A stretch of DNA of 64,000 nucleotides from an uncultured Mycoplasmatota bacterium. GTDB taxonomy: Bacteria > Bacillota_I > Bacilli_A > RF39 > UBA660. Both the position numbers and the translations under genes were made by a program. Position 1 is the first letter of the stretch. Every line of letters begins with the position of its first letter. The stretch is from the NCBI GenBank assembly GCA_900543825.1, contig UQSR01000003.1, positions 825 to 64,824 on the forward strand, given 5' to 3'. Positions 9,549 through 35,901 of the stretch are shown piece by piece. The notes under the pieces are model-generated. The model did not search any database and was not told where the DNA came from. It saw nothing but the letters and a program-made list of their open reading frames with translations.

Positions 9549-9588
9549 TCATAAAAAGATAACACTATTTTTTAACAGTGTTATCTTT
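9549..9588 (-). terminator. Terminator overlapping the stop codon of the LtaS-family gene
   Basis: A 12-bp stem, aaagataacact (9555-9566) with agtgttatcttt (9577-9588), is followed by a T-run on the minus strand. Confidence 0.55.
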
Positions 9589-12445: not shown

Positions 12446-12446
12446 T

Positions 12447-16234: not shown

Positions 16235-16236
16235 TT

Positions 16237-17202: not shown

Positions 17203-17206
17203 TATA

Positions 17207-18157
17207 TCACCCTTTAACTTTACCTTTAATATTCAAAATAATTTTAGATAAATTATACATATTATGATAATTTAACCAAGCTATAATCTTTCTATTTATA
17301 CTTATATTTTTATAAAAGGCTTGTTTTCTATAATCACTTATATTGTCTTTAGAATATTTAATTAATTGTTTAATAACATCTTTTTTATCGGTACTTTTTT
17401 GAACAGCAACTCTATTAATAGTAGTTATAAGTATATGATTAAAAATTAAGTAAGAAACAATATTTTTATCATACTTATTATTTTTCTTCAAATAATCAAT
17501 TATATCATCAATAACAATTATCATATCCAAGTTCTTTTTAGAATTATTATTATTCATTGTAGATTCATGGCCACAATTACAATGATAAAGGCCTTCGCTT
17601 ATATTAGATATCTTATTAGTGTTAAAAAGTATTTTTGTAGTAAAGTCAAAATCCTCATACCATAATTTTGATAAAAACCTAAAATCTTTTATCAATTCTT
17701 TTCTAAATATTTTATTGCAAGCCGATGGAGTCACTTCAAATACACTATTATACTTAGTACAATTATGATATATAGTATAATAGCTATAATGATCAACCAT
17801 ATCACATATTACTATATCACTTTTATCTTTTTTTGCAAGAAAATACATTTTTTCTAAAGTATCCAAATCAAGCCAATCATCACTATCAACAAAAGAAATA
17901 TATTCACCAACAGCCTTTTCTATCCCCATATTTCTAGCGGATCCTTGCCCACCATTTTCCTTAATAAAAGATTTAATTTTATCAGGATATTTTTTTACAT
18001 ATTCATCTATTATTTTTTGACTATTATCTGGACTGCCATCATTAACAACAATAATTTCAATTTCCTTTAAAGTTTGGTTAACTAACGAATTTAAACATTT
18101 ATCTATAAACTTTTCAACATTATATACAGGAACAATGACACTAACCTTTATTTTCAT
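17207..18157 (-). CDS. Family 2 glycosyltransferase (paralogue 1)
   Basis: It has the GT-A motifs SVIVPVYNVEKFI, VVNDGSPD, FVDSDD and WYEDFDF. Confidence 0.85.
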   Translation of the reverse strand: MKIKVSVIVPVYNVEKFIDKCLNSLVNQTLKEIEIIVVNDGSPDNSQKIIDEYVKKYPDKIKSFIKENGGQGSARNMGIEKAVGEYISFVDSDDWLDLDTLEKMYFLAKKDKSDIVICDMVDHYSYYTIYHNCTKYNSVFEVTPSACNKIFRKELIKDFRFLSKLWYEDFDFTTKILFNTNKISNISEGLYHCNCGHESTMNNNNSKKNLDMIIVIDDIIDYLKKNNKYDKNIVSYLIFNHILITTINRVAVQKSTDKKDVIKQLIKYSKDNISDYRKQAFYKNISINRKIIAWLNYHNMYNLSKIILNIKGKVKG

Positions 18158-18159
18158 TT

Positions 18160-19926
18160 TTACACCTCATATTCACAAATAATTTCATCATATCTTTTCT
18201 TTAATATTTTAAGTTCTTTTTGAATCTTTTCTTTAATATTTTTATTATTAACTAGATTATTATGTTCAAAAGGATCTTTTTTAATATCATATACTTCTTT
18301 TATTATATTATCATCAAATTTCTTATCAATATAAATATCCATGATAATATCATAATTATCAGTTCTAACGCCTAATATAATAGGCCTTCTTTTAACATCT
18401 GGACATCCACCACCCATATATTCAAGTAAGGCATAATTATCACCATTATATTTAAGTAAACTTTTTCCCTTAAAATCTTTTGGAATAGGAATATTAGCCA
18501 AATCTAATAATGTTGCCGGAATATCCTTGGTAGAACAATAGTTTTTAATCATTTTATGCTTAATGCTTTTATCATAAACAATAAATGGCACATTATAATT
18601 CTCTCTATAACTAGATATTACATATTTTTCTCTCACAGGGGAAAAATAATATGAAAAGCCATGATCTGCAGTTATTACCACACTGGTATTATTCAATAAC
18701 TTCTCGCTTTCTAAAAAATCAAATATATTTTTAATAATATTATCACAGTACATTAAAGATAAATCATATGCTATACTTCCCTTATAATCTTTTGGTATAT
18801 TATTCAAATAATTATCTATTCTTTTGAAATCACTGTCTATAACATTTATATCATTAGTATCATAAGTAAAGAAATTTTCTGTATAGTGAGCATCATCAAT
18901 ATGGACATAACTCATCCAATTCTCATTTTCATTATTTTTTATCCATTTAAATAATTCTTGTGACACAGTATAAAATGATCTTTGAGCTTTAAACTGATCG
19001 TAATTTGCGCCTATTCTTTCATATAAATCTTTATCAAATAATGAATTCTTATATCCTGCTAATACACCTTTAGTAGTAGAAAAATTTCTTTTTAAAACAG
19101 AGTTACACACTTTCTTTAAAGGTAAACTATTATTTAATAAATTATATTTAAAATCTAAACTTGCTATTTTTTTAAAGGTATTTTCATATTTATTCATAAC
19201 TATATTTCTTACATCAGCACTATGTACCTTATCAGTCATCTTATATGTCTTAATTTTAAATAAAGGATGTTCTTCCTTTAATCTTAAAAGATTTTCTAAA
19301 TACTTATATTTATCTTTCTTAAAAATATCATATTCGTTATTTAATAATTCAATATCATTTTGAATATTAGTAATATCTATGCAATCATTTAACATAACTG
19401 TTTCTTCATTATTAGTACTAATTTTTTTGAAATAAATCATCCATGCTTTAAAATTATCTTCTAACATACAAGCAAGCATTTTTTCTTCTTCTTCAGTTAA
19501 TTTATCATTTGCAAATATTTCTGAAAAATATTTAAGTCTATATTCCCAAAGTTGTACAAATTGAAACCCTTCTATATATTTTTTCTCATCATATCCTTTT
19601 ACCATACAAGATGGATATATGCTAGGATAATAAGTATTAAAGAAAACCCTATATCCATGTTTTTGAAAGAATTCTAAAACACATTTGCTAGTTTTTAATC
19701 TTTCCATATATCCACCATTATCCATAGTGTCAACAGATGCTAAAAGACTCATTAAAGCAGCTTCGGTATAAGGTGCTTCAGAATACATTTTATCACCCGA
19801 TATTGACTCATTCCTAAGTTTACTTAAAAATGGTGCTATCTTTTTTGAATTACTTTTATTAAACAAAACATCATTGGTAACAGAATCTATAACAATAAAC
19901 AATATATTTTTTTTCATATTACTCAC
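18160..19926 (-). CDS. Soluble alkaline-phosphatase-superfamily (sulfatase/LtaS-like) phosphotransferase or hydrolase
   Basis: 588 aa with no N-terminal TM segment. It has the metal/nucleophile motifs ILFIVIDSV, EAPYTEAALMSL and ITADHGF. Confidence 0.6.
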   Translation of the reverse strand: MSNMKKNILFIVIDSVTNDVLFNKSNSKKIAPFLSKLRNESISGDKMYSEAPYTEAALMSLLASVDTMDNGGYMERLKTSKCVLEFFQKHGYRVFFNTYYPSIYPSCMVKGYDEKKYIEGFQFVQLWEYRLKYFSEIFANDKLTEEEEKMLACMLEDNFKAWMIYFKKISTNNEETVMLNDCIDITNIQNDIELLNNEYDIFKKDKYKYLENLLRLKEEHPLFKIKTYKMTDKVHSADVRNIVMNKYENTFKKIASLDFKYNLLNNSLPLKKVCNSVLKRNFSTTKGVLAGYKNSLFDKDLYERIGANYDQFKAQRSFYTVSQELFKWIKNNENENWMSYVHIDDAHYTENFFTYDTNDINVIDSDFKRIDNYLNNIPKDYKGSIAYDLSLMYCDNIIKNIFDFLESEKLLNNTSVVITADHGFSYYFSPVREKYVISSYRENYNVPFIVYDKSIKHKMIKNYCSTKDIPATLLDLANIPIPKDFKGKSLLKYNGDNYALLEYMGGGCPDVKRRPIILGVRTDNYDIIMDIYIDKKFDDNIIKEVYDIKKDPFEHNNLVNNKNIKEKIQKELKILKKRYDEIICEYEV

Positions 19927-20765
19927 CTATCTTTTTTGATATACTGATTATATGGCAAATTAAAATCAAGAAAATAAGGTGTATGTTCTCTAGCCTTTAT
20001 TTGTTCTTTAGAAGGTATTTCCATATAGTTTCCATAAATATTTCTTAAATATTCATCGGTTTTTTCCGGAACAGGCAACTTAGTATCCTCAAAATCAATA
20101 TATATAGGTTTTCCATATACACTTTTTTCTAATTTATTTTGTTCAAAACCATCCCCATCAGCAATTGAAACCCAATACTTACTACTATTACAATCATATT
20201 TAAAACATCTTTTAGTCGTATATTTAAGTATTCTCTTTCTTCCAAAAATTTTCAAAATAACATTAAATATACCCCTAAGTACTTTATTATTAATAATATT
20301 TTTATTAGCAGATAACATAAAAGCCCTATTTATTTTTAAAATCCCTTCCTTAAATTTATTTTCTGGACAACCAACTATAGGAAAAACATCAACATATATG
20401 GAACGAACTATATCAATATCCTTATTACCTTCCTCAATCAAAGTAGTAGTTATATCTCTTATTTTAGAAAAAGATAAATAATAATCTTTTTCTTTATCAG
20501 GTGTTTGTACATAATATTTATTTTTATCAAGTTGCTGTTCACAAACTTCTAAAAACTTAACATAGTTATCATACGTCATTCCTATATCAAAATCATCATC
20601 CCAAGGAATAAAGCCTTTATGTCTTATAGCTCCAAGTGCTGAGCCATATAAAATATAATATTCTATATTATTCTTTTTACACACATCATCTATATCTTTA
20701 ACAATATCTAATATTTTTAATTGTAACTTTCTTTTATAATCTTTTTCTAGTTTCATCTTTTGCAC
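19923..20765 (-). CDS. licD: LicD-family phosphotransferase (transfers phosphocholine or a related phospho-head-group from a CDP/CMP donor)
   Basis: It has the LicD signature YILYGSALGAIRHKGFIPWDDDFDI. 280 aa. Confidence 0.85.
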   Translation of the reverse strand: MQKMKLEKDYKRKLQLKILDIVKDIDDVCKKNNIEYYILYGSALGAIRHKGFIPWDDDFDIGMTYDNYVKFLEVCEQQLDKNKYYVQTPDKEKDYYLSFSKIRDITTTLIEEGNKDIDIVRSIYVDVFPIVGCPENKFKEGILKINRAFMLSANKNIINNKVLRGIFNVILKIFGRKRILKYTTKRCFKYDCNSSKYWVSIADGDGFEQNKLEKSVYGKPIYIDFEDTKLPVPEKTDEYLRNIYGNYMEIPSKEQIKAREHTPYFLDFNLPYNQYIKKDR

Positions 20766-21821
20766 CTACTCAAATTCTACAGTTTCTTTAACATCATTAT
20801 TTATTTCATAAGGAAAATTATATAAATACTTTTCCAATTCTCTTTCAATTATCTTACTTTCTTCTTGATATTCTTTTTTTCTAAATAATTGTGTATTTTT
20901 TATTGATATATCAGGATCAAATCTTGATTTCTTGTTTATATGATCTTTACTAGTAAATCCTAAAAATTTTGTTATTCTCTTTACTTCATCATCATAATTA
21001 TATATTAAATCTTCAAATCTAATTCTTAATACTTTATTAGAATTACATTCTTTTTCACTTTCTCTCATTTTCTTATAAAAAGAACAAAACTCATTTACAT
21101 CAAGTGGAAAAGGTACACAAATTTGTTTCTTTTGCCAAATATATTTATTAATTATAAATACATCTCTAGGATCCCTTTCTACTGCTATAGCTTTTAATCT
21201 ATCATCAAAATAATTATCTACTCTAAATAAATTAAATGGTAATAAAAATTGATCTAATATTATATTCTCTTTTCCTTTTGACACTACATCTATTATATCA
21301 TAAATATATTTATGAGACTCTTCATAAAATTTTTCTGAAGTTATATATGATATTCTCATACCATCAGAATACTTTAAAACTTTATTAAATTTGACTTTAT
21401 TACCAGTTAGTATTTTAATCGGTTTTCTTATCAATAATTTTAAAAACATCTTAGTATTTACTTCTTCATGTGTATACCAATATCCAGGAAAATTAAACTG
21501 TTGAATACGTCCTATATATTCTTCTGTCATTTTCATAAAATTTGGACTAATTATTTTTTGATAATTTCCTACCCACCAAAATTTCTTATTATATAATTTA
21601 TTCATCTGAGTTTCAAAGCTACGAATCGCCTCGTCACTTCTAATAGCATTATTACCAATTAATAATTTATCTTCCAAATCAAATAAACCATTTGGACAAT
21701 GTAAAAGTACATATTCATAGCTCTTATATTCATTCTGGCAATCTTTAAATTCGGAAATTAAATCCGTAATAGCGGATGATCCACTACCCATATACCCCAT
21801 TGGCACTATAATTCTTTTCAT
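20766..21821 (-). CDS. Sulfotransferase-like protein (putative)
   Basis: An N-terminal P-loop-like GYMGSGSSAITDL, an internal AVERDPRDVFI and RFEDLIYNYDDEVKRITKFLGF resemble the PAPS-binding 5'-PSB and 3'-PB regions. Confidence 0.45.
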   Translation of the reverse strand: MKRIIVPMGYMGSGSSAITDLISEFKDCQNEYKSYEYVLLHCPNGLFDLEDKLLIGNNAIRSDEAIRSFETQMNKLYNKKFWWVGNYQKIISPNFMKMTEEYIGRIQQFNFPGYWYTHEEVNTKMFLKLLIRKPIKILTGNKVKFNKVLKYSDGMRISYITSEKFYEESHKYIYDIIDVVSKGKENIILDQFLLPFNLFRVDNYFDDRLKAIAVERDPRDVFIINKYIWQKKQICVPFPLDVNEFCSFYKKMRESEKECNSNKVLRIRFEDLIYNYDDEVKRITKFLGFTSKDHINKKSRFDPDISIKNTQLFRKKEYQEESKIIERELEKYLYNFPYEINNDVKETVEFE

Positions 21822-23345: not shown

Positions 23346-24371
23346 TCATATTCTTATCTTTTTTATTATATACTTATTTATTATTTTATATATAGCAGTT
23401 ATAATCATTGATAAACTTATTGATAGAATAAAAACCAATGGTACTATCTTAAAATATCCTACAACACTAAAGAAATTTAAATTTTCAAAATAATTATAAT
23501 ATAAGAAATTATCAACAATCCAAGATACTAAATACATACCAAATGATAATTCAGATATTTTCACTATTATTTTTTTAATATTTATATTTAACTTTGTTAA
23601 ATCAAGATTTATTATAAATAAGAATATCAAACTAGATGTAAGAACATTAAAAATACTTCCCCAATCATTAAGTATACATCTAATAAAAGTAGTTCCTTTA
23701 GAAATATAAATATTTATAAATGACGATATAACTAAACAGATTAAAAATAATAATATATTTTTTAATGATTTAATATTTACTTTATATTCTTTTAAATAAC
23801 AACCTATAAAATAATAAGTAAGTGGATAAATACCAGTCCACCAATCTGGAATTAAAGAATATTTTATATTAAATATACCTTGAAACGAAGTTAAAATAAG
23901 CATCGTCATTATCAAAATTTGCTTTTGCTTTCTTGATTTCAAATTATTATATATAAGATTAATAAATGGTATAAGTAAAAATAATCCAATATACATTTCA
24001 ACATACCAACTATAACCTATTTCAAAATTTAATATATTATAAACAATATGTTTTATATCCATTTGCTGATTCAAATATAAAATGTTATAGTTCAAATACA
24101 ATACCGCATCTAATAAATAAATTATAAGTACTCTACTTATCCCCAAATAATATTTTTTACTTAATGTCTTATTCTTCATCAAATAACCAGTAGTTATCAT
24201 AAAAAGTGGTACGCATATCATAAATAAAGTTCTAAAAAATACTGCTATATACATATCATTTCCCGATATAGTTTTGTCATAAAATCCCGTATTAGCAAAA
24301 AAATGTACAGATATTACTGAAAATACTGCAATACATTTTATTAAATCAATATTTATATTTCTTTTTCTCAT
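23346..24371 (-). CDS. Acyltransferase family 3 membrane protein (putative glycan O-acetyltransferase)
   Basis: 341 aa with about 10 TM helices. The N-terminal NIDLIKCIAVFSVISVHF is typical of acyltransferase_3 proteins. Confidence 0.7.
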   Translation of the reverse strand: MRKRNINIDLIKCIAVFSVISVHFFANTGFYDKTISGNDMYIAVFFRTLFMICVPLFMITTGYLMKNKTLSKKYYLGISRVLIIYLLDAVLYLNYNILYLNQQMDIKHIVYNILNFEIGYSWYVEMYIGLFLLIPFINLIYNNLKSRKQKQILIMTMLILTSFQGIFNIKYSLIPDWWTGIYPLTYYFIGCYLKEYKVNIKSLKNILLFLICLVISSFINIYISKGTTFIRCILNDWGSIFNVLTSSLIFLFIINLDLTKLNINIKKIIVKISELSFGMYLVSWIVDNFLYYNYFENLNFFSVVGYFKIVPLVFILSISLSMIITAIYKIINKYIIKKIRI

Positions 24372-24445: not shown

Positions 24446-26263
24446 TTACTTTTTATCGTAATATTCTTTAATACTTTGAATAAAATAGTCATTTTCTTCT
24501 TTCGTTTTAACAGCTATTCTTATATATTCCTTATCATCAAATCCATTCTTACCATTTAATACTTTAATAAGAATCTTATTATTATCTAATAAATATTCAG
24601 CAATTTCATTAGCGGTACTCTTATTTAACTTAATCATAAAATAATTAGCTTCTGAATCATAAACATCTAATTCACTAATTTTAATTAACTCATTATAAAA
24701 TCTATTTCTTTCCTCTTTTATTTTACTACATCCATATGCATAATCTTTTTTATATATCAAAAATATTTGTAAGAAATACTCTGCAAAAGAATTAATATTC
24801 CATACTGGCATATTTCTATTAATAATATCAAGATATTCATGATTACCACTAGCAAGCACGCCAAGTCTTAATCCAGGTACACCATATGATTTGCTTATAC
24901 TCTTAATAACAATTAAATTAGGATATTTATTTAATATATCATCATTTATTAAAGTATAACTATCATTAGCAAAATCAATAAATGATTCATCAAATATTAC
25001 TTGCTTATCCATTTCTTTAGCCATATCTAATAATTCTATAACCTCACCATATTTCAAATGAGAGCCACTAGGATTATCAGGAGAAATAACAATTAATGTA
25101 TCAACTTTATTTAATGTTTCTTTTAATTTATTTAATGATAAACGATAATTATCATCTTTACTATTTATATAAGTAATCTCACTATTTGGAAAACATCTAA
25201 CATATTCATTAAATGACGGTATAGTAAGAGCAATTTTCTTACCTACTATATATTTCAAATTATTAATAAGTTCAGCAGCACCATTTCCTATTAAAATATT
25301 ATCATCACTTACATTATCAAACATTCTACAAGCACAAATTCTTTCAATACTTTGTCCAGAAGGATAATTAAATAATAACTTATCATAAAAATATTTCATT
25401 TTATTAATCATAGCTTCTGTAGGAAAATATGGATTAACTAAATAGCAATAATCTTTTATACCATTAAATCTCCAGTATCCACCAAATCTCTTATGAAATA
25501 ACTCTAGTTTTTCATGCGTACTAGGGGCAAACATAGCTTTAACAATATCATAATCTTGACAATCATCTATTTCATACCAAAGTTCATTAGTAAGTGGAAG
25601 ACCATATAAATTAGTATCCTTAAGTTCACTAATTACCTTAAGTACTAGCTCATAATAATCATTATTTCCATATGCCTTAATATATGACTCTAAAAACGGA
25701 AGATAAAATCTTTCAGAAAAATCTTTACTAAATTTATAGATATTAACTGTTTTATAATAACTATCAACATCATCATAATTAAAATCTTTTCTTTCTACAA
25801 AGGAATTAATAGTATTATCATCATTTAATTTTACTACTGTTCCATCCATCCATTCCTCATATTTAGCTATTAAAGCAGCACTCTCATATTTAGAATTAAC
25901 TAACTTCTTAATTATAGACTTATCATATATTAAATCAGACTCCAATAATATAGTATCATCTTGTATAAGATAATCTTTAGCCAAATAAAGCGAATAAATA
26001 TTATTAGTAGTATCATACACATCATTATCAACATAAGTAATATTAATCTTCTTATCTAACTCTTTTTCTTTAATAAATTTTTTTACATTATCTTTTTTAT
26101 ATCCAAGTACCAAGATAAAATCTTTAATACCAGCTTCTAACAAAGCATCTATTGCTCTTTCTAGCAATGTTTCTCCATGTACATCAAGCATACATTTAGT
26201 ATTGTTCTTAGTATATTTTCCTAATCTAGATCCTTTACCAGCTGCTAACATTATTGCTTGCAT
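24446..26263 (-). CDS. Bifunctional LicC-type nucleotidyltransferase (N-terminal) fused to a class I/II PLP-dependent HisC/CobD-like enzyme (C-terminal)
   Basis: The N-terminal part has LAAGKGSRLG, NNIYSLYLAKDYL and WYEIDDCQDY (LicC-like). The C-terminal part has ISPDNPSG, FDESFIDF and SISKSYGVPGLRLG (the PLP-Lys motif). Confidence 0.75.
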   Translation of the reverse strand: MQAIMLAAGKGSRLGKYTKNNTKCMLDVHGETLLERAIDALLEAGIKDFILVLGYKKDNVKKFIKEKELDKKINITYVDNDVYDTTNNIYSLYLAKDYLIQDDTILLESDLIYDKSIIKKLVNSKYESAALIAKYEEWMDGTVVKLNDDNTINSFVERKDFNYDDVDSYYKTVNIYKFSKDFSERFYLPFLESYIKAYGNNDYYELVLKVISELKDTNLYGLPLTNELWYEIDDCQDYDIVKAMFAPSTHEKLELFHKRFGGYWRFNGIKDYCYLVNPYFPTEAMINKMKYFYDKLLFNYPSGQSIERICACRMFDNVSDDNILIGNGAAELINNLKYIVGKKIALTIPSFNEYVRCFPNSEITYINSKDDNYRLSLNKLKETLNKVDTLIVISPDNPSGSHLKYGEVIELLDMAKEMDKQVIFDESFIDFANDSYTLINDDILNKYPNLIVIKSISKSYGVPGLRLGVLASGNHEYLDIINRNMPVWNINSFAEYFLQIFLIYKKDYAYGCSKIKEERNRFYNELIKISELDVYDSEANYFMIKLNKSTANEIAEYLLDNNKILIKVLNGKNGFDDKEYIRIAVKTKEENDYFIQSIKEYYDKK

Positions 26264-26267
26264 AAAA

Positions 26268-27179
26268 TCACTTCCTTACCTTTTTATAGCAATCATAACT
26301 TTTATCTATTTGTTTTAGTTCATTAAATGTATCTATTTCAATAATATCTCCATCATGACATTCTCTTACATGTATTTTATAATTATTCTTACATACATCT
26401 AAAATCACTTGTTCCCAATATTTTTCTTTTCCACCAGGCATATTAAATACTTTATCAATATCACTTTCTATCTTCTTACCATCATCTTCATTATAATATG
26501 ATATTCCATACATTTGATAGCAGTTATATCCTCCTAATTTTTCTTTAGTAATAATACCATTTTTACTTTCAAAGCACCAATCATCAGTTACGTCTACTTT
26601 CTTACCCAAAAAATTAGAATAATATTCATATTTTCTTATAATATCAGGATTATATAATACTAAATCAGATTCCAATACATAACTATTTTTAAACTTATCC
26701 TTTACCATATATGCAGAAGAAATATTATTCATTTCATTATATTTATCATTATATACAAATTTTATATTTGGATATTTTTTTAATAACACTTCAAATTGTT
26801 CTCCCAAATATCCTGTTACAATTATTATTTCTTCTATTTCAGCTCTTACCACAGCATCAAGCAAAGTTTCTATTATTCTCTTTCCATTTACTAATACCAT
26901 TGGTTTAGGTGTATTTAAAGTTATAGGTACCATCCTAGAACCAAAACCAGCCGCTAAAAAGATAGCCCTTTTTACCCTATACGGCTCTAATGAATGCAAT
27001 CCATCTTCACTTATCAAATTATTTTCATCAATTAATCCCCTATTTTGAAGATCCATTACTACTTTATTTACAGTACCTAAAGATAAATCTGTTAATTTTG
27101 ATAATTCTCTTTGCGATAATTTCTTTTTTTCTTTTTCAACACATGTTAATATTTCAAACTCATTATATGTTATATCCAT
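26268..27179 (-). CDS. Winged-helix HTH domain fused to a LicC-type cytidylyltransferase
   Basis: Residues ~1-65 (KLSQRELSKLTDLSLGTVNKVVMDLQNRGLI) form a MarR-like wHTH. The rest (FLAAGFGSRMVPIT...VTGYLGEQF...NNISSAYMV) is colinear with pneumococcal LicC. Confidence 0.75.
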   Translation of the reverse strand: MDITYNEFEILTCVEKEKKKLSQRELSKLTDLSLGTVNKVVMDLQNRGLIDENNLISEDGLHSLEPYRVKRAIFLAAGFGSRMVPITLNTPKPMVLVNGKRIIETLLDAVVRAEIEEIIIVTGYLGEQFEVLLKKYPNIKFVYNDKYNEMNNISSAYMVKDKFKNSYVLESDLVLYNPDIIRKYEYYSNFLGKKVDVTDDWCFESKNGIITKEKLGGYNCYQMYGISYYNEDDGKKIESDIDKVFNMPGGKEKYWEQVILDVCKNNYKIHVRECHDGDIIEIDTFNELKQIDKSYDCYKKVRK

Positions 27180-28746
27180 TTATACTTCTCCTACTTTCTT
27201 TTCTATTTATTATATATATTATACCTTTTGCTATTACATTAAAAAATAATATAATTAATGATATAATAGCAGCCTCTCCAAGCATCATATTTCCTTCATA
27301 ATTATTTATAAGTAACGATAATGGCATCGTTTTAGTATTAAATAAAAACGTAATAGCAGATATAGTTACCATAGAATTAACAAAGAAATAAGTAAGCATT
27401 TCTCTTATTGTCTTCTTTGTACATGGTATTATTACATCAATTATTATCCTAAGTACACTAATATTACATGTTTTAGCAACAACCTCATAATTAGGATTAA
27501 CCTTCTCTAGAGCATTATATGCCATTAAATATGGTGAAGCAATAAAATGAATAATATTTACTATAACCATAATTATAAATGTATTATATATAAAACTATT
27601 CCTAAAACCTATTGAATACGATAACCCTAATACGATTCCTGGTATTGCTAAAGATATTATTGTCAATACATGTATTACTTTTGCTGATTTTCCCTTTATT
27701 CTAGCAGTAGTATAAGCAGCAAAATATGCTATAAATGTTCCAAATATGGATACTAAAATAGATATAAATAAAGAATTAAATATATATTTACCAATATTAT
27801 TATCTATAATATATTCAAAATGTTTAAATGACAAAGTGTTATCAATTACAGGATTATTTACAAAGGCATAATAAATAAACGAACCTAATATTAAAAATAT
27901 AAAAGCAATTATCAAATAAACAAATATAGTTAATATTACATCCCTCTTTTTATTAGAACTAATTTTATATTCCTTACCTTCAAACTCACCACTACTATAA
28001 TCCTTAGAAAAATTATCAAACAAAAATGATATAATAGCAGGAATAAGTAAAAATAATCCTATCATTGTTCCTTTAGAATAATCAAGTAATCCTATTACCT
28101 CTTTATATAAAAATACAGGTAATGTAATAAACTTTCCCCCTACCGCTAAAGGCACACCATAATCAGTAAATATCATTGTAAATACCGCAAATATAGCAGA
28201 TAATAATGGCTTTTTCAAATAACATAAAGTTACCTTCTTAAATGTTTGCCATTTATTCATTCCAAGTACTTTAGCAGTACTATACATATTATTATCAATA
28301 TAATTAAAACCATCATCTAACATTAAAAAAGCTACTGGGAAAGAATACATAATAGAACCAAGTATAATTCCATAACTTCCAATGATATTAAAGCCTAATG
28401 ACTTTGATATTATACCATTAGCACCAAATAAATTTATTAATCCAAGTCCATGAGATATAGATGGTATAAGCATGGGTACTGTAAGCAATAATTTTAATAT
28501 AGCTTTATGTTTTATATTAGTTCTATTTAATGTAAAAGCCAAGAAAAAAGCTATCAATATTGATACTATAGTAGATATACTAGTTACTATTAATGAATTA
28601 GATAATGCTTCTTTAAAAGCAAAAGACGAAACCAACGATCCAAAATCAGACCATTCTACCCTAATTAACATTTCTAGTAGTGGATAAAAAACTGTTACTA
28701 ATAAAAATATAAAAATCAATATACTTATTTTACTTTTCTTTTTCAT
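27163..28746 (-). CDS. ABC importer permease with two fused transmembrane domains (FbpB/ThiP/PhnU-type)
   Basis: 527 aa with about 12 TM helices in two tandem binding-protein-dependent permease modules. It overlaps both neighbouring genes. Confidence 0.8.
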   Translation of the reverse strand: MKKKSKISILIFIFLLVTVFYPLLEMLIRVEWSDFGSLVSSFAFKEALSNSLIVTSISTIVSILIAFFLAFTLNRTNIKHKAILKLLLTVPMLIPSISHGLGLINLFGANGIISKSLGFNIIGSYGIILGSIMYSFPVAFLMLDDGFNYIDNNMYSTAKVLGMNKWQTFKKVTLCYLKKPLLSAIFAVFTMIFTDYGVPLAVGGKFITLPVFLYKEVIGLLDYSKGTMIGLFLLIPAIISFLFDNFSKDYSSGEFEGKEYKISSNKKRDVILTIFVYLIIAFIFLILGSFIYYAFVNNPVIDNTLSFKHFEYIIDNNIGKYIFNSLFISILVSIFGTFIAYFAAYTTARIKGKSAKVIHVLTIISLAIPGIVLGLSYSIGFRNSFIYNTFIIMVIVNIIHFIASPYLMAYNALEKVNPNYEVVAKTCNISVLRIIIDVIIPCTKKTIREMLTYFFVNSMVTISAITFLFNTKTMPLSLLINNYEGNMMLGEAAIISLIILFFNVIAKGIIYIINRKESRRSINGYNI

Positions 28747-29507
28747 TACAAATCAATTCCTGTACATTTTTCTATTGATGATACTTTCTCTTTTAGATGA
28801 TTAGTAACAAAGTTTCTAACATAATCATTTTTAGGATGATTAAATATCTTATTAGGAACATCTATTTGTTCAATATTTCCATCATGCATAACCATTACTC
28901 TATCTGATAGAGAAAAAGCTTCTTCCTGATCATGAGTTATATATATCATAGTAGTCTTAAATTCCTTCTGAAGAGCCTTCAATTCTTTTCTTAATATTAA
29001 TCTATTATCAGCATCTAAAGCACTCATTGGTTCATCAAATAAAATTATATCTGGTTTTAAAGAAAGCGTTCTTGCTATTGCAACCCTTTGTTGCTGTCCA
29101 CCTGATAATTCATGTGGATATTTATTTATATGTTCATCCATATTTACTACGTTTAATACTTTCATAGCTTCCTTCTTAGCCTTATCCTTGTTTTTTAACT
29201 TTAAATTTAAAGCATACATAACATTATCTAAAACATTCATATTAGGGAATAGAGCATAGTTCTGAAAAACTATACCCATTCCTCTTTTAGAAGGATCTAA
29301 ATTTGTAATATCCTTCTCATTCTTAATAATTTCACCACTCGTAGGACTTTCTATACCAATCAAAATCTTTAGTAATGTTGTTTTACCACATCCGGAAGGT
29401 CCTAATATCGATAAAAACTCACCATCATTAACTTCAAAACTAATATTATTTAATACAGTTTTATCATTATATACTTTAGTAAGGTTATTTATCTTAAGAT
29501 TAACCAT
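28746..29507 (-). CDS. ABC transporter ATP-binding protein
   Basis: It has Walker A GPSGCGKTT, the signature LSGGQQQR and Walker B ILFDEP. At 253 aa it lacks a C-terminal regulatory domain. Confidence 0.9.
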   Translation of the reverse strand: MVNLKINNLTKVYNDKTVLNNISFEVNDGEFLSILGPSGCGKTTLLKILIGIESPTSGEIIKNEKDITNLDPSKRGMGIVFQNYALFPNMNVLDNVMYALNLKLKNKDKAKKEAMKVLNVVNMDEHINKYPHELSGGQQQRVAIARTLSLKPDIILFDEPMSALDADNRLILRKELKALQKEFKTTMIYITHDQEEAFSLSDRVMVMHDGNIEQIDVPNKIFNHPKNDYVRNFVTNHLKEKVSSIEKCTGIDL

Positions 29508-30477
29508 TTACTTCTCCCCACTTCTCTGTTAACTTATCTTTTGTCTCTATACTATCTATTCCAGTCATATCAGCATCAACCAAATCAGTAGGATAATTTT
29601 CTACCTTATTGTCTTGATCCTTTAATATTATATCTGGAAGATAATGCTCTTTATCATATTTACCAAAATCATTAATCAACCATTGAAATACTTTTCTTAC
29701 ATTTTCGTTTGTCTCTTTACCCTTAATAATACCAAATGATGTAGTATTATATGGAGACCCAGTATCTAACGAAACAATCTTAAAATCATATCCTTCATTA
29801 ATTGCATGTACACCTTGTGATGTCATTCCCATAGCAATAGCTATTTCTCCTTGTTTTAATAAATTAGTAGGTCCTGATCCAGAAGTTGTATATTCTCTCA
29901 TATTCTCTTTTAATTTTTTAAAATATTCTATTGCTTTATCCTCCCCCATAATATTTACAACATTCAAATAAAAACCATATCCAGTACCTGAAGTTTTTGG
30001 ATCAGGCATTGCTATTAATCCTTTATATTCTGGCTTTAATAAGTCATCATATGTTTTAGGAATATTTAACTTATGTTCTTTAAAATATTTATTATCAATG
30101 ATTAAATTCATAGTATATTTAGTCCAAGTCAAATAATTACTATCATTATTTACACCATCTAAATAAATACTAGTATCAAAATCAGATAAATCTGCAAAAT
30201 TATCTTTGACATCTTTCATATGAGCTGTCTCCAAATCCAATACTATATCTGCCTCTACTTTTGTGCCTTCATTTTTAATTTTAGCAGCACAATTTCCTGT
30301 AGCCATATATTGCACTACAACATCCATATCAGGAAATTCTTCTTTTACCATTTTCTTTAAATCCTGATTTCTTTCTTCTTCCATAGAGCTATATATTACT
30401 ACTCTATCTTTATTTGAACCACACCCCGTTAACAATAACATTAAGGTTAATCCTAAAAATATTATTTTTTTCTTCAT
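29500..30477 (-). CDS. ABC importer substrate-binding lipoprotein (Fe3+/thiamine/2-aminoethylphosphonate-type class)
   Basis: It has the lipobox LLLTGCGS, and its size and pattern fit a periplasmic binding protein. The start is taken at the ATG at 30477, because 30480 is a TTG. Confidence 0.75.
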   Translation of the reverse strand: MKKKIIFLGLTLMLLLTGCGSNKDRVVIYSSMEEERNQDLKKMVKEEFPDMDVVVQYMATGNCAAKIKNEGTKVEADIVLDLETAHMKDVKDNFADLSDFDTSIYLDGVNNDSNYLTWTKYTMNLIIDNKYFKEHKLNIPKTYDDLLKPEYKGLIAMPDPKTSGTGYGFYLNVVNIMGEDKAIEYFKKLKENMREYTTSGSGPTNLLKQGEIAIAMGMTSQGVHAINEGYDFKIVSLDTGSPYNTTSFGIIKGKETNENVRKVFQWLINDFGKYDKEHYLPDIILKDQDNKVENYPTDLVDADMTGIDSIETKDKLTEKWGEVNG

Positions 30478-30517
30478 CAATCTTCTCTCCTTCTTGAACT
30501 ATTTTGTTCATAATTAG

Positions 30518-30594: not shown

Positions 30595-31629
30595 TTATTC
30601 AGTCACAATAAATCCATCAGGTATCGGTCTTGTCTTTTCCATGTTATCCCAATTTATAGGATGATTTATTAATTCATTATTTATAACTAAAGCACTAGAA
30701 TTACCACCATCTAGATTAGCAGCATTATAAGCATGATATCTAAGTAAGATATCTACTAAGTCGTTCATATCAGCACCTTTACTTTTTAAACTTCTACCAT
30801 CAATTACTAAAAATAACACTATACCATCTTGCCTTTGAGCAATAGCACTTCTAGGATGAGTACCATATCCACCATTACCATTAATAAAAGCACTCTTCCC
30901 ATTAACTATTAAAAATGGTCCAAATTCTACAGCATCTCTTATTCCCATATTAATAGCTTCATTAGCACTTATCTTACCAAGATATAACTTATTATCATTA
31001 GTAAATCCAACTATACCACCACCATATTGACTAGTACCATAATTACTAATTATCTTACCTCCAGATATAATAGCTCCCATAGGTTGTCCACCACTACCCA
31101 ATCCTTCAGCATCCAAAAATCCACCACCATTTATAGCAACAACAGCATTTTCTCTCTTAGCCATATCAACTAAATATTCACCATCATTACCCAAATATCT
31201 ACTATAAGTAACTTTAATTTTAGAAGGATCATATATTGCTACAAGATATCCCCTATAACCATTTTCTTCTATTTCTATTAATTTATAAATATCATTTTTA
31301 TTTCTATCTAATATTTCCTTATCATATTTATCTTTATAATTATTATCTTCTTCAAGAATTAAACTAGTATCAGTATTTCCATCAGGTTCTATCATACTAT
31401 GTCTTTCTAAAATCTTATTAATAGTCTCATCATTATAAAATGTTTGTGCTAAATAATGATGCCTCATTGTACTCATAGCGGTAGTAACAAGCCAGTCTCT
31501 AAAGTTATTATAAGGACCATATAAAAGAAAAAGTACTATAACTGCAATAACATCACATATACTAAGAATAATAGTAAAAATATTATCCCTTTTCTTTTCT
31601 TTATCAATTCCATCCCTTTTTCTTCTCAT
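30595..31629 (-). CDS. Membrane-anchored phosphodiester glycosidase family protein (DUF2233 / uncovering-enzyme-like)
   Basis: A basic N-terminus plus one TM segment is followed by a C-terminal domain with AINGGGF, PRSAIAQ..DG.....VIDGR and AANLDGGNSS. Confidence 0.6.
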   Translation of the reverse strand: MRRKRDGIDKEKKRDNIFTIILSICDVIAVIVLFLLYGPYNNFRDWLVTTAMSTMRHHYLAQTFYNDETINKILERHSMIEPDGNTDTSLILEEDNNYKDKYDKEILDRNKNDIYKLIEIEENGYRGYLVAIYDPSKIKVTYSRYLGNDGEYLVDMAKRENAVVAINGGGFLDAEGLGSGGQPMGAIISGGKIISNYGTSQYGGGIVGFTNDNKLYLGKISANEAINMGIRDAVEFGPFLIVNGKSAFINGNGGYGTHPRSAIAQRQDGIVLFLVIDGRSLKSKGADMNDLVDILLRYHAYNAANLDGGNSSALVINNELINHPINWDNMEKTRPIPDGFIVTE

Positions 31630-31655: not shown

Positions 31656-32669
31656 TTATTTATTGTTTAAATATTTAACAACTCTCTCTATCTCATCATC
31701 CCCTATTAAAGGAATAATAACTCTAGATAAATTCTTATCACTATCCAAATACATTCCATCATTATTAAGTGATTCATTAACAATATTAGATAAAAATATA
31801 TTATATTCTCCTCTAGTAGTCATATAAAAACTAATCTTACAAGTATTATTATTAGTAAATATTCTAACCATATCATCATTAGATAAAGTATCAGTAGACA
31901 CAATCAAATGAATATTACATTTATCTCCAAGTGATAATAAATAATTAATATCCTCATCAATACTATTATCCATTTCTAATATTTCATATATCTCATCTAT
32001 AAATACTAGTATTCTCTCCCTATTACCATTCTTTACTCTTTCTTCAAATTCTCTTCTTAATAACTTAATCTTCTTAATAACATCATCTTTCCCATTAACA
32101 ACCTCACATACATTAGCAAAATCATTATAATTAATACTTTGTGTATCAAGTATAATAATCTTAGTATCAGTATAATTAATAAGAACATTCATAATAATAT
32201 TCCTAAATAAATTAGTCTTACCGCTGCCACTAGTACCAGTAACCAAAAGATTCTTATCCTTATCAAAATCAAAAATAATAACTCTATCTTCTTCATCTAA
32301 ACCTAAAGCTACCTTAAATTTATCATCCTTCTTATACATAGATAATAATTCCTTTAAAGTAAGAATATCCCTTTTCATATTAAGAACTTTAATCTCTATT
32401 TCATTATCACTAATTCTATCTATCTTTAATTCTTCTTTAGGTACTCCTAAAGCTAAAGCAATCTCCTTATTATATTCTATAATATCATTATAATCCTTAT
32501 CATCATTCCAACTAATACGATATATAGTTACTAAACGATAAACATTATACGTAACTTTAGGATTAAAACCAAAAGCCTTAAGAGTATTATGTAAATTACT
32601 AACAAACAAATCAGCATTAAGAACATTTCTATCATTATCAAAAGTTGGATTATTTAACAAATTAATCAT
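31656..32669 (-). CDS. FtsK/SpoIIIE-family ATPase, motor domain only (no TM region, no gamma domain)
   Basis: 337 aa. It has Walker A LLVTGTSGSGKTN and the Walker B-like ILVFIDEIYEI. The N-terminal part aligns with the FtsK alpha domain (LKAFGFNPKVTYNVYRLVTIYRI). Confidence 0.65.
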   Translation of the reverse strand: MINLLNNPTFDNDRNVLNADLFVSNLHNTLKAFGFNPKVTYNVYRLVTIYRISWNDDKDYNDIIEYNKEIALALGVPKEELKIDRISDNEIEIKVLNMKRDILTLKELLSMYKKDDKFKVALGLDEEDRVIIFDFDKDKNLLVTGTSGSGKTNLFRNIIMNVLINYTDTKIIILDTQSINYNDFANVCEVVNGKDDVIKKIKLLRREFEERVKNGNRERILVFIDEIYEILEMDNSIDEDINYLLSLGDKCNIHLIVSTDTLSNDDMVRIFTNNNTCKISFYMTTRGEYNIFLSNIVNESLNNDGMYLDSDKNLSRVIIPLIGDDEIERVVKYLNNK

Positions 32670-32684: not shown

Positions 32685-34196
32685 TTATTTCTTCTTCCTA
32701 TTTTTTATTAGTATATTACCAGTCATCTCACTAGGAATATCAAGTCCCATCAAATATAATATAGTTGGAGCAACATCACCAAGCTTACCATCTAATAATT
32801 TAACCTTCTTATCAAGAACAATAAAAGGTACCAAATTAGTCGTATGACTAGTATTAATACTACCATCTTTATTTCTCATAACCTCACAATTACCATGATC
32901 CGCTATTATTATCATAGTATATTCATCAAGAGAAATATTTTTTAATATCTTACCAATACATTCATCAACAGTCTCTACAGCCTTAATAGCAGCATCATAA
33001 TCACCAGTATGACCAACCATATCACCATTAGCAAAATTAAGTACAACAAAATCCTCCCTATTACTAGTAATTTCTCTTACCAAAGAAGCAGTAATCATAT
33101 TAGCACTCATTTCTGGTTCCCTATCATAAGTAGCTACTTTAGGACTAGGTATTAATATTCTTTTTTCATTATCATACACTTTATCAATACCACCATCAAA
33201 AAAATAAGTAACATGAGCATATTTCTCAGTTTCAGCAATTCGTAATTGAGTAAATCCCTTTTTTGATATATATTCTCCTAAAGTATTTTTAATTTTAGGA
33301 AGTTCAAAAGCATAAGGACAAAGCACCGTATCAGTAACATGCATCATACTAACAACCTTAAGATTATTAATCTTACATCTATCAAAACATTCATATTTAT
33401 CATTAGTAAACGCACTAGCTAATTCCCTTAATCTATCAGGTCTAAAATTAAAAAATATAATACCATCATTATCTTCTATAAGCCCATTTTCTATAGTAGC
33501 AGTAGGTACAATAAATTCATCTGTTATCTTATTTTTTTGACTACTTTTCCATACTTTTTTAACATCTACTACTAAAGAAGGTTTAGTCATAACATCATAG
33601 CTCTTTTTAACCCTATCAAATCTATTATCCCTATCCATACCATAATATCTACCACTAATAGAAGCAATCTTACCAAGTTTTAAACTCTTCATCTTTTTCT
33701 CTAACGCTTCAATATATTTAATACCACTAGTAGGACTAACATCCCTGCCATCAGTAAATATATGAACATATACATTTTTAACATTTTCTTTTTTACATAA
33801 ATCAAGTAAAGCAAATAAATGATTAATATGAGAATGCACCCCACCATCAGATAATAAACCAATTAAATGTAACTTAGAATTATTATCTTTAACATGTCTA
33901 ATAACTTTTAAAAATTCATCATTACTATAAAAAGACCCATCTTTTATTTTGCTATTTATTAGTTCTAACGATTGATATACTAGTCTACCAGCTCCAATAT
34001 TAGTATGACCAACTTCACTATTACCCATTTGACCACTAGGAAGTCCAACACTCTCACCAGAGGCAATCAAAGTAGCACTAGGATAATGATCCCATAAATA
34101 ATCAAGTACTGGTGTTTTAGCATTATACACAGCATTATATTTCTTTTCTTTAGATAACCCTATACCATCCATAATGCATAATAATATTTTCTTCAT
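32685..34196 (-). CDS. gpmI: 2,3-bisphosphoglycerate-independent phosphoglycerate mutase
   Basis: 503 aa. It has ILDGIG-type CIMDGIGL, GQMGNSEVGHTNIGAGR and ADHGN. Confidence 0.92.
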   Translation of the reverse strand: MKKILLCIMDGIGLSKEKKYNAVYNAKTPVLDYLWDHYPSATLIASGESVGLPSGQMGNSEVGHTNIGAGRLVYQSLELINSKIKDGSFYSNDEFLKVIRHVKDNNSKLHLIGLLSDGGVHSHINHLFALLDLCKKENVKNVYVHIFTDGRDVSPTSGIKYIEALEKKMKSLKLGKIASISGRYYGMDRDNRFDRVKKSYDVMTKPSLVVDVKKVWKSSQKNKITDEFIVPTATIENGLIEDNDGIIFFNFRPDRLRELASAFTNDKYECFDRCKINNLKVVSMMHVTDTVLCPYAFELPKIKNTLGEYISKKGFTQLRIAETEKYAHVTYFFDGGIDKVYDNEKRILIPSPKVATYDREPEMSANMITASLVREITSNREDFVVLNFANGDMVGHTGDYDAAIKAVETVDECIGKILKNISLDEYTMIIIADHGNCEVMRNKDGSINTSHTTNLVPFIVLDKKVKLLDGKLGDVAPTILYLMGLDIPSEMTGNILIKNRKKK

Positions 34197-35184: not shown

Positions 35185-35901
35185 TTATACCCTTTTTCCT
35201 ATTATTAATAAATACTTCTTATCATACTTTGCATAATCCTTATGTGTACTACAAGTCTGAAGTAATAAAATCTCATCATCAGCACTAACATCTACATTAG
35301 TATCATACATCGACTTACTCTTAAGTTTATTCAAATGTTCCAAATAATCACTATCATTAGCAAAGTTAATATTCATATAAGTAAAATCACTATACTCCAC
35401 AAATACCGAAAATATCTCATATTTTTTCTTAACATTATTTGTAGTAACATAAATATATTTATGATCATCATAATAATTCTTATCATAATAATTCTCTAAT
35501 ATCTTAAAAGGCATATCTACTCGAGAAGAATTATGACCAAATATCAAAAGCTTTTTACTATTATCAATATCAACCCTATAATCCAAATAAATAGATCCCA
35601 TATAATTATCTTCTTTATCAGGTGTATGATTCAAATAATACTCATTATCTTCTCCCTGCATAATAGGAGCACTATAATCCGTATTATCAAAAGATAAAAT
35701 ACCTACCACATCATCATTATTATACTTTTCCTTTAACTCATTTATTTCTTTACTATAATCAGTAGGATTAGTAACATTATTATTTCTCTCAACATCAAAA
35801 TCAATTTTCTTATCATTCTTATTATAAAACAAATATACCATTACCATAATAACAAATAAAACAAATAAACTAATAACTAATATTATCTTTCTTTTTTTCA
35901 T
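35185..35901 (-). CDS. srtB: Class B sortase
   Basis: It has an N-terminal TM anchor, FGHN (His), LLQTCS (catalytic Cys) and a C-terminal Arg. The length of 238 aa is typical of SrtB. Confidence 0.75.
   Translation of the reverse strand: MKKRKIILVISLFVLFVIMVMVYLFYNKNDKKIDFDVERNNNVTNPTDYSKEINELKEKYNNDDVVGILSFDNTDYSAPIMQGEDNEYYLNHTPDKEDNYMGSIYLDYRVDIDNSKKLLIFGHNSSRVDMPFKILENYYDKNYYDDHKYIYVTTNNVKKKYEIFSVFVEYSDFTYMNINFANDSDYLEHLNKLKSKSMYDTNVDVSADDEILLLQTCSTHKDYAKYDKKYLLIIGKRV

Follow-up and report, generated by a model that had tools for sequence, protein, structure and literature searches.

The subject of this study is a fused gene in a 64,000-nucleotide stretch of DNA (26% G+C) from an uncultured Mycoplasmatota bacterium; we refer to the whole stretch as the window. 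Within a long run of minus-strand genes lies a single uninterrupted open reading frame (ORF) at 24446..26263, which starts with ATG and encodes 605 amino acids, of which residues 1–245 are a LicC/PntC-type nucleotidyltransferase and residues 246–605 a class I/II enzyme dependent on pyridoxal 5′-phosphate (PLP). Public annotation calls it only an 'aminotransferase class I/II-fold PLP-dependent enzyme'. An earlier note, made by a model from the letters of this DNA, had pointed out the fused ORF and suggested that its PLP domain makes a head-group precursor, that the fused transferase activates this precursor with CTP, and that a LicD protein transfers it, with no kinase involved. The ORF at 24446–26263 proved to be an intact two-domain fusion, although its strand had to be corrected to minus (the plus-strand translation is full of stops), and we argue below that the protein may be a bifunctional synthase of head groups for a surface glycan. 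Its two halves are as follows:

25529..26263, minus strand: N-terminal LicC/PntC-type nucleotidyltransferase domain (residues 1–245), a predicted CTP:phospho-amino-alcohol cytidylyltransferase
24446..25528, minus strand: C-terminal fold-type-I PLP domain (residues 246–605 plus the stop codon), CobD/SMUL_1544-like, a predicted phosphoserine (or phosphothreonine) decarboxylase

Pfam profiles recovered both domains (NTP_transf_3 / NTP_transferase at residues 3–181, E = 4e-12 and 1e-11; Aminotran_1_2 at residues 319–598, E = 5e-33), and the translation contains all six motifs that the earlier note had quoted, namely LAAGKGSRLG (residues 6–15), NNIYSLYLAKDYL (87–99), WYEIDDCQDY (229–238), ISPDNPSG (393–400), FDESFIDF (424–431) and SISKSYGVPGLRLG (455–468). 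AlphaFold, supplied with an alignment of 87 family members (A1), returned a compact two-domain model with a predicted local distance difference test score (pLDDT) of 96.3 and a predicted template-modeling score (pTM) of 0.90.

Because the window is only 26% G+C, long ORFs are rare by chance. Close relatives of ~605 amino acids (81–99% identity) were found on hundreds of independent contigs, and the metagenome contig L015 is 99% identical. When we used HMMER to search all representatives of clusters at 50% identity, 599 representatives matched the fusion at E ≤ 1e-30, and full-length two-domain fusions filled at least 150 of these clusters, with identity down to 28%. Full-length relatives on so many contigs and in so many clusters rule out a frameshift or assembly artifact, a possibility that the earlier note had raised. 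The fusion is real and under selection, ancient and conserved.

The nucleotidyltransferase half found its best sequence matches in the Protein Data Bank (PDB) in LicC (1JYK, 5e-14), followed by the PntC domain of Tde1415 (6PD1, 1.4e-10). It contains the nucleotide-binding signature LAAGxGxRL as well as Lys23, and its C-terminal acidic motif WYEIDD, which binds metal, aligns with IYEID of LicC; among the 87 sequences of A1, G9, G11, R13, K23, W229, E231 and D233 are each kept in at least 90% of members. Residues 2–219 of the LicC sequence in our alignments were checked against database matches. A more discriminating comparison comes from the amine-binding pocket. In Tde-PntC, Glu104 and Glu196 touch the primary amine of CMP-2-aminoethylphosphonate, whereas the equivalent residues of LicC are the smaller Asp105 and Asp192, which give room to the trimethylammonium group (Rice et al., PMC6697681); those authors read the glutamates as forming a tighter pocket for a primary amine. 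The LLESDLIYD segment of the fusion is identical residue for residue to that of Tde1415, so that Glu108 corresponds to Glu104 of Tde-PntC, and Glu205, the acidic residue of YYE, falls opposite the Asp in YWD of LicC, a position matched via LicC and not via Tde1415 directly. Both glutamates are kept in at least 90% of the family. Having Glu at both amine-contacting positions suggests a PntC-like pocket that would fit a small primary amine, for instance phosphoethanolamine or 2-aminoethylphosphonate (AEP), and the replacement of Asp/Asp by Glu/Glu argues against phosphocholine. We therefore predict that the transferase half is a CTP-dependent cytidylyltransferase for a phospho-amino-alcohol.

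The PLP half is, as far as its residues tell, catalytically intact. Lys458 (Schiff base), Asp425 (pyridine nitrogen), Asn397 (O3′) and Arg466 (PLP phosphate) align with the corresponding residues of CobD and HisC, and these four, together with Arg582, are kept in at least 90% of the 87 sequences. (Residues 56–354 of the Salmonella enterica CobD sequence in the alignment were checked against database matches.) The NCBIfam equivalog models for CobD (TIGR01140) and hisC (TIGR01141) gave 156.4 bits against a cut-off of 290.55 and 165.3 bits against a cut-off of 276.55, respectively; because it falls under both cut-offs, the PLP half belongs to neither equivalog and represents a distinct subfamily. 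Ranking PDB entries by sequence similarity to this half with phmmer gave the following order:

6OUX, SMUL_1544: 149 bits (1.7e-42)
3FTB, Clostridium acetobutylicum, deposited as HisC: 111 bits
3FKD, Porphyromonas gingivalis CobD: 96 bits
1LC5, S. enterica CobD: 90 bits
1H1C, Thermotoga maritima HisC: 72 bits
1FG3, Escherichia coli HisC: 50 bits

A ranking by structure, for which we used Foldseek with the AlphaFold model, likewise placed SMUL_1544 first, followed by S. enterica CobD (template-modeling (TM) score 0.85–0.86, root-mean-square deviation (rmsd) 2.1–2.2 Å), 3FTB and 3FKD, with every bona fide HisC lower. SMUL_1544 reportedly forms ethanolamine phosphate from L-serine O-phosphate by decarboxylation, as part of norcobamide synthesis. 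The title of its PDB entry names it 'a decarboxylase from Sulfurospirillum multivorans', and it has been annotated as a 'threonine phosphate decarboxylase-like enzyme' (PMC7755780).

Motifs within the PLP half sort in the same way. The family's DESF matches DEAF of CobD and DESF of SMUL_1544, where HisC has DEAY; Phe428 thus stands at the position of the DEAY tyrosine of E. coli HisC, a residue that we take to be conserved across HisC enzymes. The family's PVWNINS resembles PWSVNA of CobD and LWNING of SMUL_1544, where HisC has PYPLST, and its DYCYLVNPY matches DACYLSNPY of SMUL_1544, where HisC has LNANEYP and CobD has FSANINP, so that a CYLxNPY motif is common to the family and SMUL_1544 specifically. 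Arg582 aligns with Arg337 of CobD and Arg335 of HisC. Phmmer, Foldseek and the motifs all put the PLP half nearer to the decarboxylases than to HisC; on sequence and modeled structure, it groups with the CobD-type phospho-amino-acid decarboxylases, closest to SMUL_1544. Among the window ORFs scanned (nearly all of those of at least 100 amino acids, compared with Pfam and/or NCBIfam, several of which gave no match), we found no his or cob genes.

One of the reference structures deserves a separate remark. The P. gingivalis protein 3FKD, although deposited as 'L-threonine-O-3-phosphate decarboxylase', has a His at the position of the Lys that forms the Schiff base with PLP (SFSHAYG vs SISKSYG), a substitution that casts doubt on its being a conventional PLP enzyme.

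The genes around the fusion point to a surface glycan. In transcription order, the relevant part of the minus-strand run reads:

32685–34196, minus strand: iPGM
31656–32669, minus strand: FtsK-like ATPase
30595–31629, minus strand: NAGPA phosphodiester glycosidase
27163–30480, minus strand: three genes of an ATP-binding cassette (ABC) importer, with sub-threshold PhnS2/T2/U2 matches
26268–27179, minus strand: winged-helix domain plus LicC-like nucleotidyltransferase (Pfam)
24446–26263, minus strand: the fusion (Pfam)
23346–24371, minus strand: membrane acyltransferase immediately downstream of the fusion (Pfam Acyl_transf_3, E = 5.6e-33), also present in the related loci L004 and L008
21823–23286, minus strand: Wzx-type flippase (Pfam Polysacc_synt), found beside the fusion in L001, L002, L006, L007 and L009
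20766–21821, minus strand: sulfotransferase-like protein of 351 amino acids, between Wzx and LicD (weak Pfam matches to Sulfotransfer_1/3, 9e-7 and 3e-5)
19923–20765, minus strand: LicD-family phosphotransferase, the fourth gene downstream of the fusion (Pfam LicD, E = 5.9e-44)
18160–19926, minus strand: sulfatase-family membrane protein, directly downstream of LicD (Pfam)
17207–18157 and 16237–17202, minus strand: two family 2 glycosyltransferase (GT2) genes (Pfam)
13724–16234, minus strand: fusion of an O-antigen-ligase-like domain and a GT4 domain, 836 amino acids (Pfam)
12447–13703, minus strand: deacetylase
11481–12460, minus strand: split Alg13/Alg14-like pair (Glyco_tran_28_C plus Alg14)
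9565–11361, minus strand: LtaS-like protein
8396–9454, minus strand: WecA-like transferase

The LicD protein, which the earlier note had placed at this locus and which is indeed there, is predicted to move the activated head group onto the glycan. Its best NCBIfam match is the Mf1 cholinephosphotransferase model (92 bits, cut-off 225), and it is syntenic with the fusion in L002, L006, L007 and L008. Gene order from the fusion through Wzx, the sulfotransferase-like gene and LicD to GT2 is kept in close relatives, and the assembly block at 13724–19926 is syntenic in related loci. The scans of window ORFs of at least 100 amino acids turned up no choline kinase or aminoglycoside phosphotransferase (APH) relative, no LicB-type permease and no phosphoenolpyruvate (PEP) mutase, in keeping with the earlier observation that LicA and LicB are missing from the locus. 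For L008 (CP091726.1, the chromosome of a metagenome-assembled genome (MAG)) we used gene order only; nearly all of its syntenic genes are split over several frames, most likely reflecting long-read (nanopore-type) indel error and not biology. A promoter and terminator scan of the window was uninformative in DNA of 26% GC, giving 171 promoter-like sites where 175 were expected.

Several other features of the window stood out. The sulfotransferase-like protein at 20766–21821 has a P-loop-like GSGSS and an RDPRD motif, has no NCBIfam match, and is 80–99% identical in relatives, where its gene is always flanked by Wzx and LicD; sulfation of the glycan is one possible role, some other nucleotide-dependent function another. 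Three membrane-anchored proteins of the sulfatase superfamily (LtaS, YejM or arylsulfatase-like) are encoded on the minus strand at 9565–11361, 18160–19926 and 43496–45019. The 836-amino-acid protein at 13724–16234 has an O-antigen-ligase/polymerase-like membrane domain followed by a GT4 domain at its C terminus and is 50–62% identical in relatives, and the Alg13/Alg14-like pair at 11481–12460, whose genes overlap by 13 nucleotides, has a eukaryote-like two-piece GT28 arrangement. A class V aminotransferase at 35976–37097, which we considered as SerC and hence as a source of phosphoserine, was rejected as a NifS/IscS-type cysteine desulfurase. The window also encodes SpoIIIAH-like, GerS-like and SpoIIP proteins of sporulation or germination (7707–8198, 38282–39436 and 60590–61615), a class A penicillin-binding protein (40400–43471) and a sortase (35185–35901). 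The nearest genomes are uncultured gut MAGs labeled Bacilli, Mollicutes, Tenericutes or 'Clostridium sp. CAG:302/CAG:609'. Because it has the class A penicillin-binding protein, the sortase and the sporulation proteins, the organism is evidently walled despite the Tenericutes and Mollicutes labels of its closest MAGs, and it is possibly spore-forming.

Four nucleotides upstream of the fusion lies the second nucleotidyltransferase gene (26268–27179). The earlier note had listed it as a LicC paralog; the paralog is present, but the description needed correcting, in that the protein begins with a winged-helix domain (Pfam HTH_24/MarR) ahead of its NTP_transferase domain and its gene adjoins an ABC importer that had been overlooked. 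Its catalytic motifs are intact (LAAGFGSRM, LESD, YWE and EID), its LESD and YWE corresponding to the LESD and YYE of the fusion. The importer, directly upstream, comprises a substrate-binding protein (29500–30480; PhnS2, 161 bits, cut-off 393), an ATPase (28746–29507; PhnT2, 325 bits, cut-off 458) and a fused double permease (27163–28746; PhnU2, 360 bits, cut-off 593), all on the minus strand. The best NCBIfam models for these three genes are thus the 'putative 2-aminoethylphosphonate' models, with every score under its equivalog cut-off, and uptake of AEP or a related phospho-amine is possible. The importer and the winged-helix transferase are variable among close relatives and recur together in L008 and L010. 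The winged-helix domain and the neighboring importer suggest a parallel branch, and together the importer and the transferase probably form a kinase-free salvage route for a phosphorus-bearing compound such as AEP.

To survey the neighborhoods of more distant relatives, we scanned metagenomes with a narrower alignment (A2), which gave 80 loci, of which we analyzed the 75 that were at most 60% identical to the window protein; these supplied 541 neighboring ORFs. Within 6 kb of the fusion, LicD was a neighbor in 29 of the 75 loci and a TagF-like transferase in 11, where a large YidC-like membrane protein usually accompanied it; one or the other was present in 40 of the 75, a figure that becomes 32 of 47 when only loci of at least 9 kb are counted. 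Judging by their Wzx, GT2, GT4, WecA-like and UpxY-like neighbors, the loci serve capsules or wall polymers, and some are of Bacteroides type. No kinase family was found among the annotated recurrent neighbor clusters (an APH-like ORF occurred in one locus only), and the EDKxxxxxNS motif of PEP mutase (Ppm) was found in none of the 541 ORFs.

The same loci repeatedly contained enzymes that act on amines. An S-adenosylmethionine (SAM) methyltransferase was a neighbor in 8 of the 75, an opine dehydrogenase homolog in 13 (L020, L046, L062, L065, L068, L075, L077, L083, L087–L089, L093 and L094), and an OCD/mu-crystallin imine reductase also in 13 (OCD loci: L025, L047, L049, L051, L054, L056, L057, L060, L066, L071, L073, L084, L092 and L099–L101). 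The latter two were usually directly adjacent to the fusion, were mutually exclusive across loci and often had LicD alongside; the window has neither. The opine dehydrogenase neighbor aligned with octopine dehydrogenase along its full length (3C7A, 1e-17) and further matched N-(1-carboxyethyl)-norvaline dehydrogenase (1BG6), and the OCD neighbor resembled Pyr2C reductase, archaeal alanine dehydrogenase and SbnB. The position of such genes beside the fusion suggests head groups with an N-(carboxyalkyl) substituent, N-(1-carboxyethyl)ethanolamine phosphate being one example, or a different reductive step. P0420, a two-domain member common in gut metagenomes (242 indexed blocks), has genes for GT4, LicD, GT2 and an OCD protein as neighbors.

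Other relatives carry such partners within the polypeptide. Five of the eight longer representatives that we scanned have a C-terminal SAM methyltransferase (P0177, P0191, P0260, P0265 and P0308), and of the others one adds LicD, one adds GNAT and one combines PLP with a TagF-like domain. The tri-domain form (nucleotidyltransferase, PLP enzyme and SAM methyltransferase) is a real family of ~30 clusters. The methyltransferase of P0191 best matched plant phospho(methyl)ethanolamine N-methyltransferases (5WP5, 4e-11; 5WP4, 2e-9; also 4KRG). One tri-domain relative (L096/L097) sits inside a flagellin-glycosylation island beside TagF-like and Asp/Glu-racemase-family genes. Another (L098) lies beside TagF-like and MBOAT genes, and 8 kb away from it are a fusion of a helix-turn-helix domain, a nucleotidyltransferase and a choline kinase, a second transferase and a BCCT transporter. 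The winged-helix transferase of the window is homologous over its length to the corresponding part of this choline kinase fusion (27% identity, E = 6e-36), which has IPCD where the window protein has LESD; by analogy, L098 would show the same pairing of de novo synthesis with salvage that we propose for the window. Because N-modifying partners (methyltransferase, GNAT, opine dehydrogenase and imine reductase) have been recruited repeatedly, the product of the PLP domain is likely to be a free primary amine.

From the observed domain architecture, conservation, closest subfamilies and gene neighborhoods, we infer the substrates, products and acceptor as follows. The CobD-like PLP domain would decarboxylate O-phospho-L-serine, a central metabolite, to phosphoethanolamine; the LicC/PntC-type domain would join phosphoethanolamine and CTP to give CDP-ethanolamine; and LicD would move phosphoethanolamine onto a lipid-linked repeat unit, which the neighboring Wzx, GT2, GT4 and ligase-like machinery would flip and assemble. 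In the salvage branch, the importer and winged-helix transferase would activate an imported phosphorus-bearing compound for the same LicD. Because the phosphate would arrive with the substrate, neither a LicA-type kinase nor a permease for choline or ethanolamine would be needed. Decarboxylation of phosphoserine is favored by the decarboxylase-like motifs and closest relatives (SMUL_1544 foremost), by the partner that resembles phosphoethanolamine methyltransferases and by the small-amine pocket, and also because phosphoserine, unlike phosphothreonine, requires no dedicated kinase. We give this reading, in which the 605-amino-acid protein takes phosphoserine through phosphoethanolamine to CDP-ethanolamine for LicD, an even chance of being right. 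All of the computational tests that we ran fit the kinase-free model of precursor synthesis, fused activation and LicD transfer that the earlier note proposed; that note had held the chemistry to be undecidable from sequence, which still holds, although the evidence now narrows toward a decarboxylase and away from de novo phosphonate synthesis.

Several observations weigh against phosphoserine and CDP-ethanolamine. Reaction type is not reliably readable from sequence in this PLP subfamily, and the PLP half, besides falling under both equivalog cut-offs, scores slightly higher on hisC than on CobD. Lys567 (in ILIKD), which is found throughout the family, occupies the position of Arg323 in CobD and Arg322 in HisC and is unlike all of the references. 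We take Arg323 and Arg337 of CobD to be ligands of the substrate phosphate; a Lys in place of Arg323 implies a substrate pocket that differs from those of known decarboxylases. No serA or serC was found in the 64-kb window. LicD does not identify the head group, because LicD enzymes accept several CDP-alcohols. Finally, the methyltransferase of P0177 lacks specific similarity to phosphoethanolamine methyltransferases, and the methyltransferase-fused relatives retain both pocket glutamates, a poor fit with a substrate as bulky as phosphocholine.

In a rival reading, the PLP domain would instead be an aminotransferase that converts dihydroxyacetone phosphate (DHAP) and glutamate to (S)-serinol phosphate, the chemistry of Cj1437, for activation to CDP-serinol and installation of serinol phosphate by LicD. 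Such an enzyme would belong to the same broad HisC/CobD subfamily, and the PLP half scores marginally higher on hisC (165 bits) than on CobD (156 bits); any cell that runs glycolysis has DHAP, reduced-genome Bacilli included, so a serine pathway would be unnecessary; and the N-modifying partners are compatible with any primary amine. The Mf1 model that best matches the window LicD is from Mycoplasma fermentans, whose lipid GGPL-III we take to bear a serinol-phosphate head group. Decarboxylases nevertheless head both the sequence and the structure rankings, Phe replaces the DEAY tyrosine, the PxWNIN and CYLxNPY motifs are as in CobD/SMUL_1544, and one fused methyltransferase resembles those that act on phosphoethanolamine. 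We consider serinol phosphate unlikely but keep it in view because the subfamily is said to switch between decarboxylation and transamination, as in Cj1436 and Cj1437.

A true L-threonine-O-3-phosphate decarboxylase, whose product (R)-1-aminopropan-2-ol phosphate would then be activated and transferred, would agree with the CobD-like fold and motifs and with the place of S. enterica CobD among the top structures (TM 0.85–0.86). It would, however, require a dedicated PduX-type kinase, and no kinase family recurs in the 75 loci; the closest relative, SMUL_1544, reportedly prefers serine phosphate; the SANINP around Asn32 of CobD is replaced by CYLVNP, as in SMUL_1544; and there is no cobamide context. 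Threonine phosphate as the substrate thus strikes us as quite improbable.

A similarly low probability attaches to a phosphonate route of the PntC-AEPT kind, in which the PLP domain would convert phosphonoacetaldehyde to AEP and the transferase would make CMP-AEP. The domain order is that of Tde1415, the top whole-chain Foldseek match, the transferase half has the PntC-like pair of glutamates, and an ABC transporter resembling AEP importers adjoins. But the transaminase of Tde1415 is of class V (AGAT/PhnW-like), a different PLP family, and only the N-terminal half of the fusion matches in sequence; the Ppm motif was found in none of the neighboring ORFs, nor was there a PEP mutase match among the window ORFs scanned; and an importer points to AEP being taken up, with no need for a transaminase. 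With no Ppm motif nearby and a Tde1415 AEP transaminase of class V, de novo phosphonate synthesis is unlikely. One further reading takes the PLP domain for a standard histidinol-phosphate aminotransferase or a CobD of cobamide synthesis, incidentally fused, or the fusion for an artifact, with no role in glycan decoration. It agrees with the bare public annotation but is scarcely credible for a protein that scores under both equivalog cut-offs, lacks his or cob context and belongs to a fusion conserved very widely amid surface-glycan assembly genes, including one flagellin-glycosylation island.

Taking the window and its relatives together under the phosphoserine reading, we tentatively propose, with somewhat less than even confidence, a widespread and previously unrecognized way in which bacteria would make zwitterionic head groups for glycans de novo: one fused enzyme would convert phosphoserine to CDP-ethanolamine, tri-domain relatives whose methyltransferase resembles those for phosphoethanolamine would make N-methylated forms up to CDP-choline, relatives with an opine dehydrogenase or imine reductase would make N-(carboxyalkyl) forms, and the window would pair the route with kinase-free salvage of the AEP type. 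Our search, whose scope was the open-access literature (subscription literature lay outside it), turned up no account of either this fusion or a phosphoserine decarboxylase coupled to a cytidylyltransferase. Both domain families and the logic are known, with PntC-AEPT as the precedent; what appears undescribed is this particular fusion, together with how widely it occurs and which accessory variants it has.

Phosphocholine and phosphoethanolamine on bacterial glycans shape colonization and serve as ligands of the C-reactive protein, serum amyloid P and natural antibodies of the host, and the textbook route from LicA to LicD requires imported choline and a kinase. If CDP-ethanolamine or a close analog were made directly from a central metabolite, the many genomes with LicD but without LicA or LicB would be explained. 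A large family annotated only as class I/II aminotransferases would gain a function, and it would predict which uncultured gut bacteria bear zwitterionic surface epitopes. Abundant commensals of the gut, among them uncultured reduced-genome Bacilli and Lachnospiraceae-like and Bacteroides-like bacteria, would then display epitopes of the phosphoethanolamine or phosphocholine type without host choline, whether on capsules, on wall polymers or even on the glycans of flagellin. The enzyme would also be a second, independent fusion of a PLP amine-former with a LicC-like transferase, after PntC-AEPT.

Among known systems, the Lic1 pathway (LicA–D of Streptococcus pneumoniae and Haemophilus influenzae) resembles our proposal in that a LicC-type enzyme activates a zwitterionic phospho-alcohol, which LicD then places on a glycan. 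It differs in that the window has neither a LicA kinase nor a LicB permease among the ORFs scanned, a PLP enzyme is proposed to supply the precursor de novo, and the amine pocket has Glu/Glu in place of the Asp/Asp of LicC. The pneumococcal CDP-2-glycerol module (gtp1-gtp2-gtp3 plus wchX; Bentley et al. 2006, PMC1391919), a cassette of dehydrogenase, LicC-like transferase, precursor enzyme and phosphotransferase that lies in a capsule locus and adds a small phospho-alcohol, resembles by description the relatives' cassettes of LicD, opine dehydrogenase or OCD, and fusion. We considered whether the fusion cassette could be this pathway and kept the module as an analogy only, because Gtp3 is annotated as a phosphotransferase and not as a PLP enzyme.

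The decarboxylases SMUL_1544 (SmCobD of S. multivorans, 6OUX; 30% identity to the PLP half, TM 0.78–0.85) and S. enterica CobD (1LC5; 24% identity, TM 0.85–0.86) share with the PLP half the DE[AS]F and PxW(N/S)(I/V)N motifs and an Arg at a position that we take to contact the substrate phosphate. They differ in standing alone and in serving synthesis of the cobamide nucleotide loop, whereas the PLP half is joined to a cytidylyltransferase and encoded within a glycan locus, and their second Arg, presumably also phosphate-binding, is a Lys in the fusion. In Campylobacter jejuni, Cj1436 is said to be a serine phosphate decarboxylase and Cj1437 a DHAP transaminase, both for capsule synthesis and both of the same PLP subfamily. 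Set beside the fusion by description, these enzymes of the HisC/CobD subfamily are alike in reportedly making ethanolamine phosphate and serinol phosphate for a surface polysaccharide, and unlike it in being unfused and in having products that are said to be dephosphorylated and amide-linked to glucuronate, not cytidylylated.

The nearest precedent in architecture is the PntC-AEPT protein Tde1415 of Treponema denticola (6PD1/6PD2), in which a LicC-like cytidylyltransferase likewise lies N-terminal to an amine-making fold-type-I PLP enzyme, both amine-contacting positions are likewise Glu, and the product likewise decorates the cell surface. Its transaminase, however, is a class V AEP transaminase (Aminotran_5; PDB molecule name, PMC13215547), in contrast to the class I/II CobD-like domain of the fusion, and its gene lies with ppm and ppd, whereas the fusion family has no Ppm motif in the ORFs nearby. 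By sequence, 6PD1 matches only residues 2–160 of the fusion, and although Tde1415 is the top whole-chain Foldseek match, the rmsd is ~21 Å and the TM score 0.36 with the domains placed differently, so that it heads the list only because it too has two domains. Because only the N-terminal halves are homologous at the subfamily level, the two proteins represent independent fusions, and their resemblance is one of analogy.

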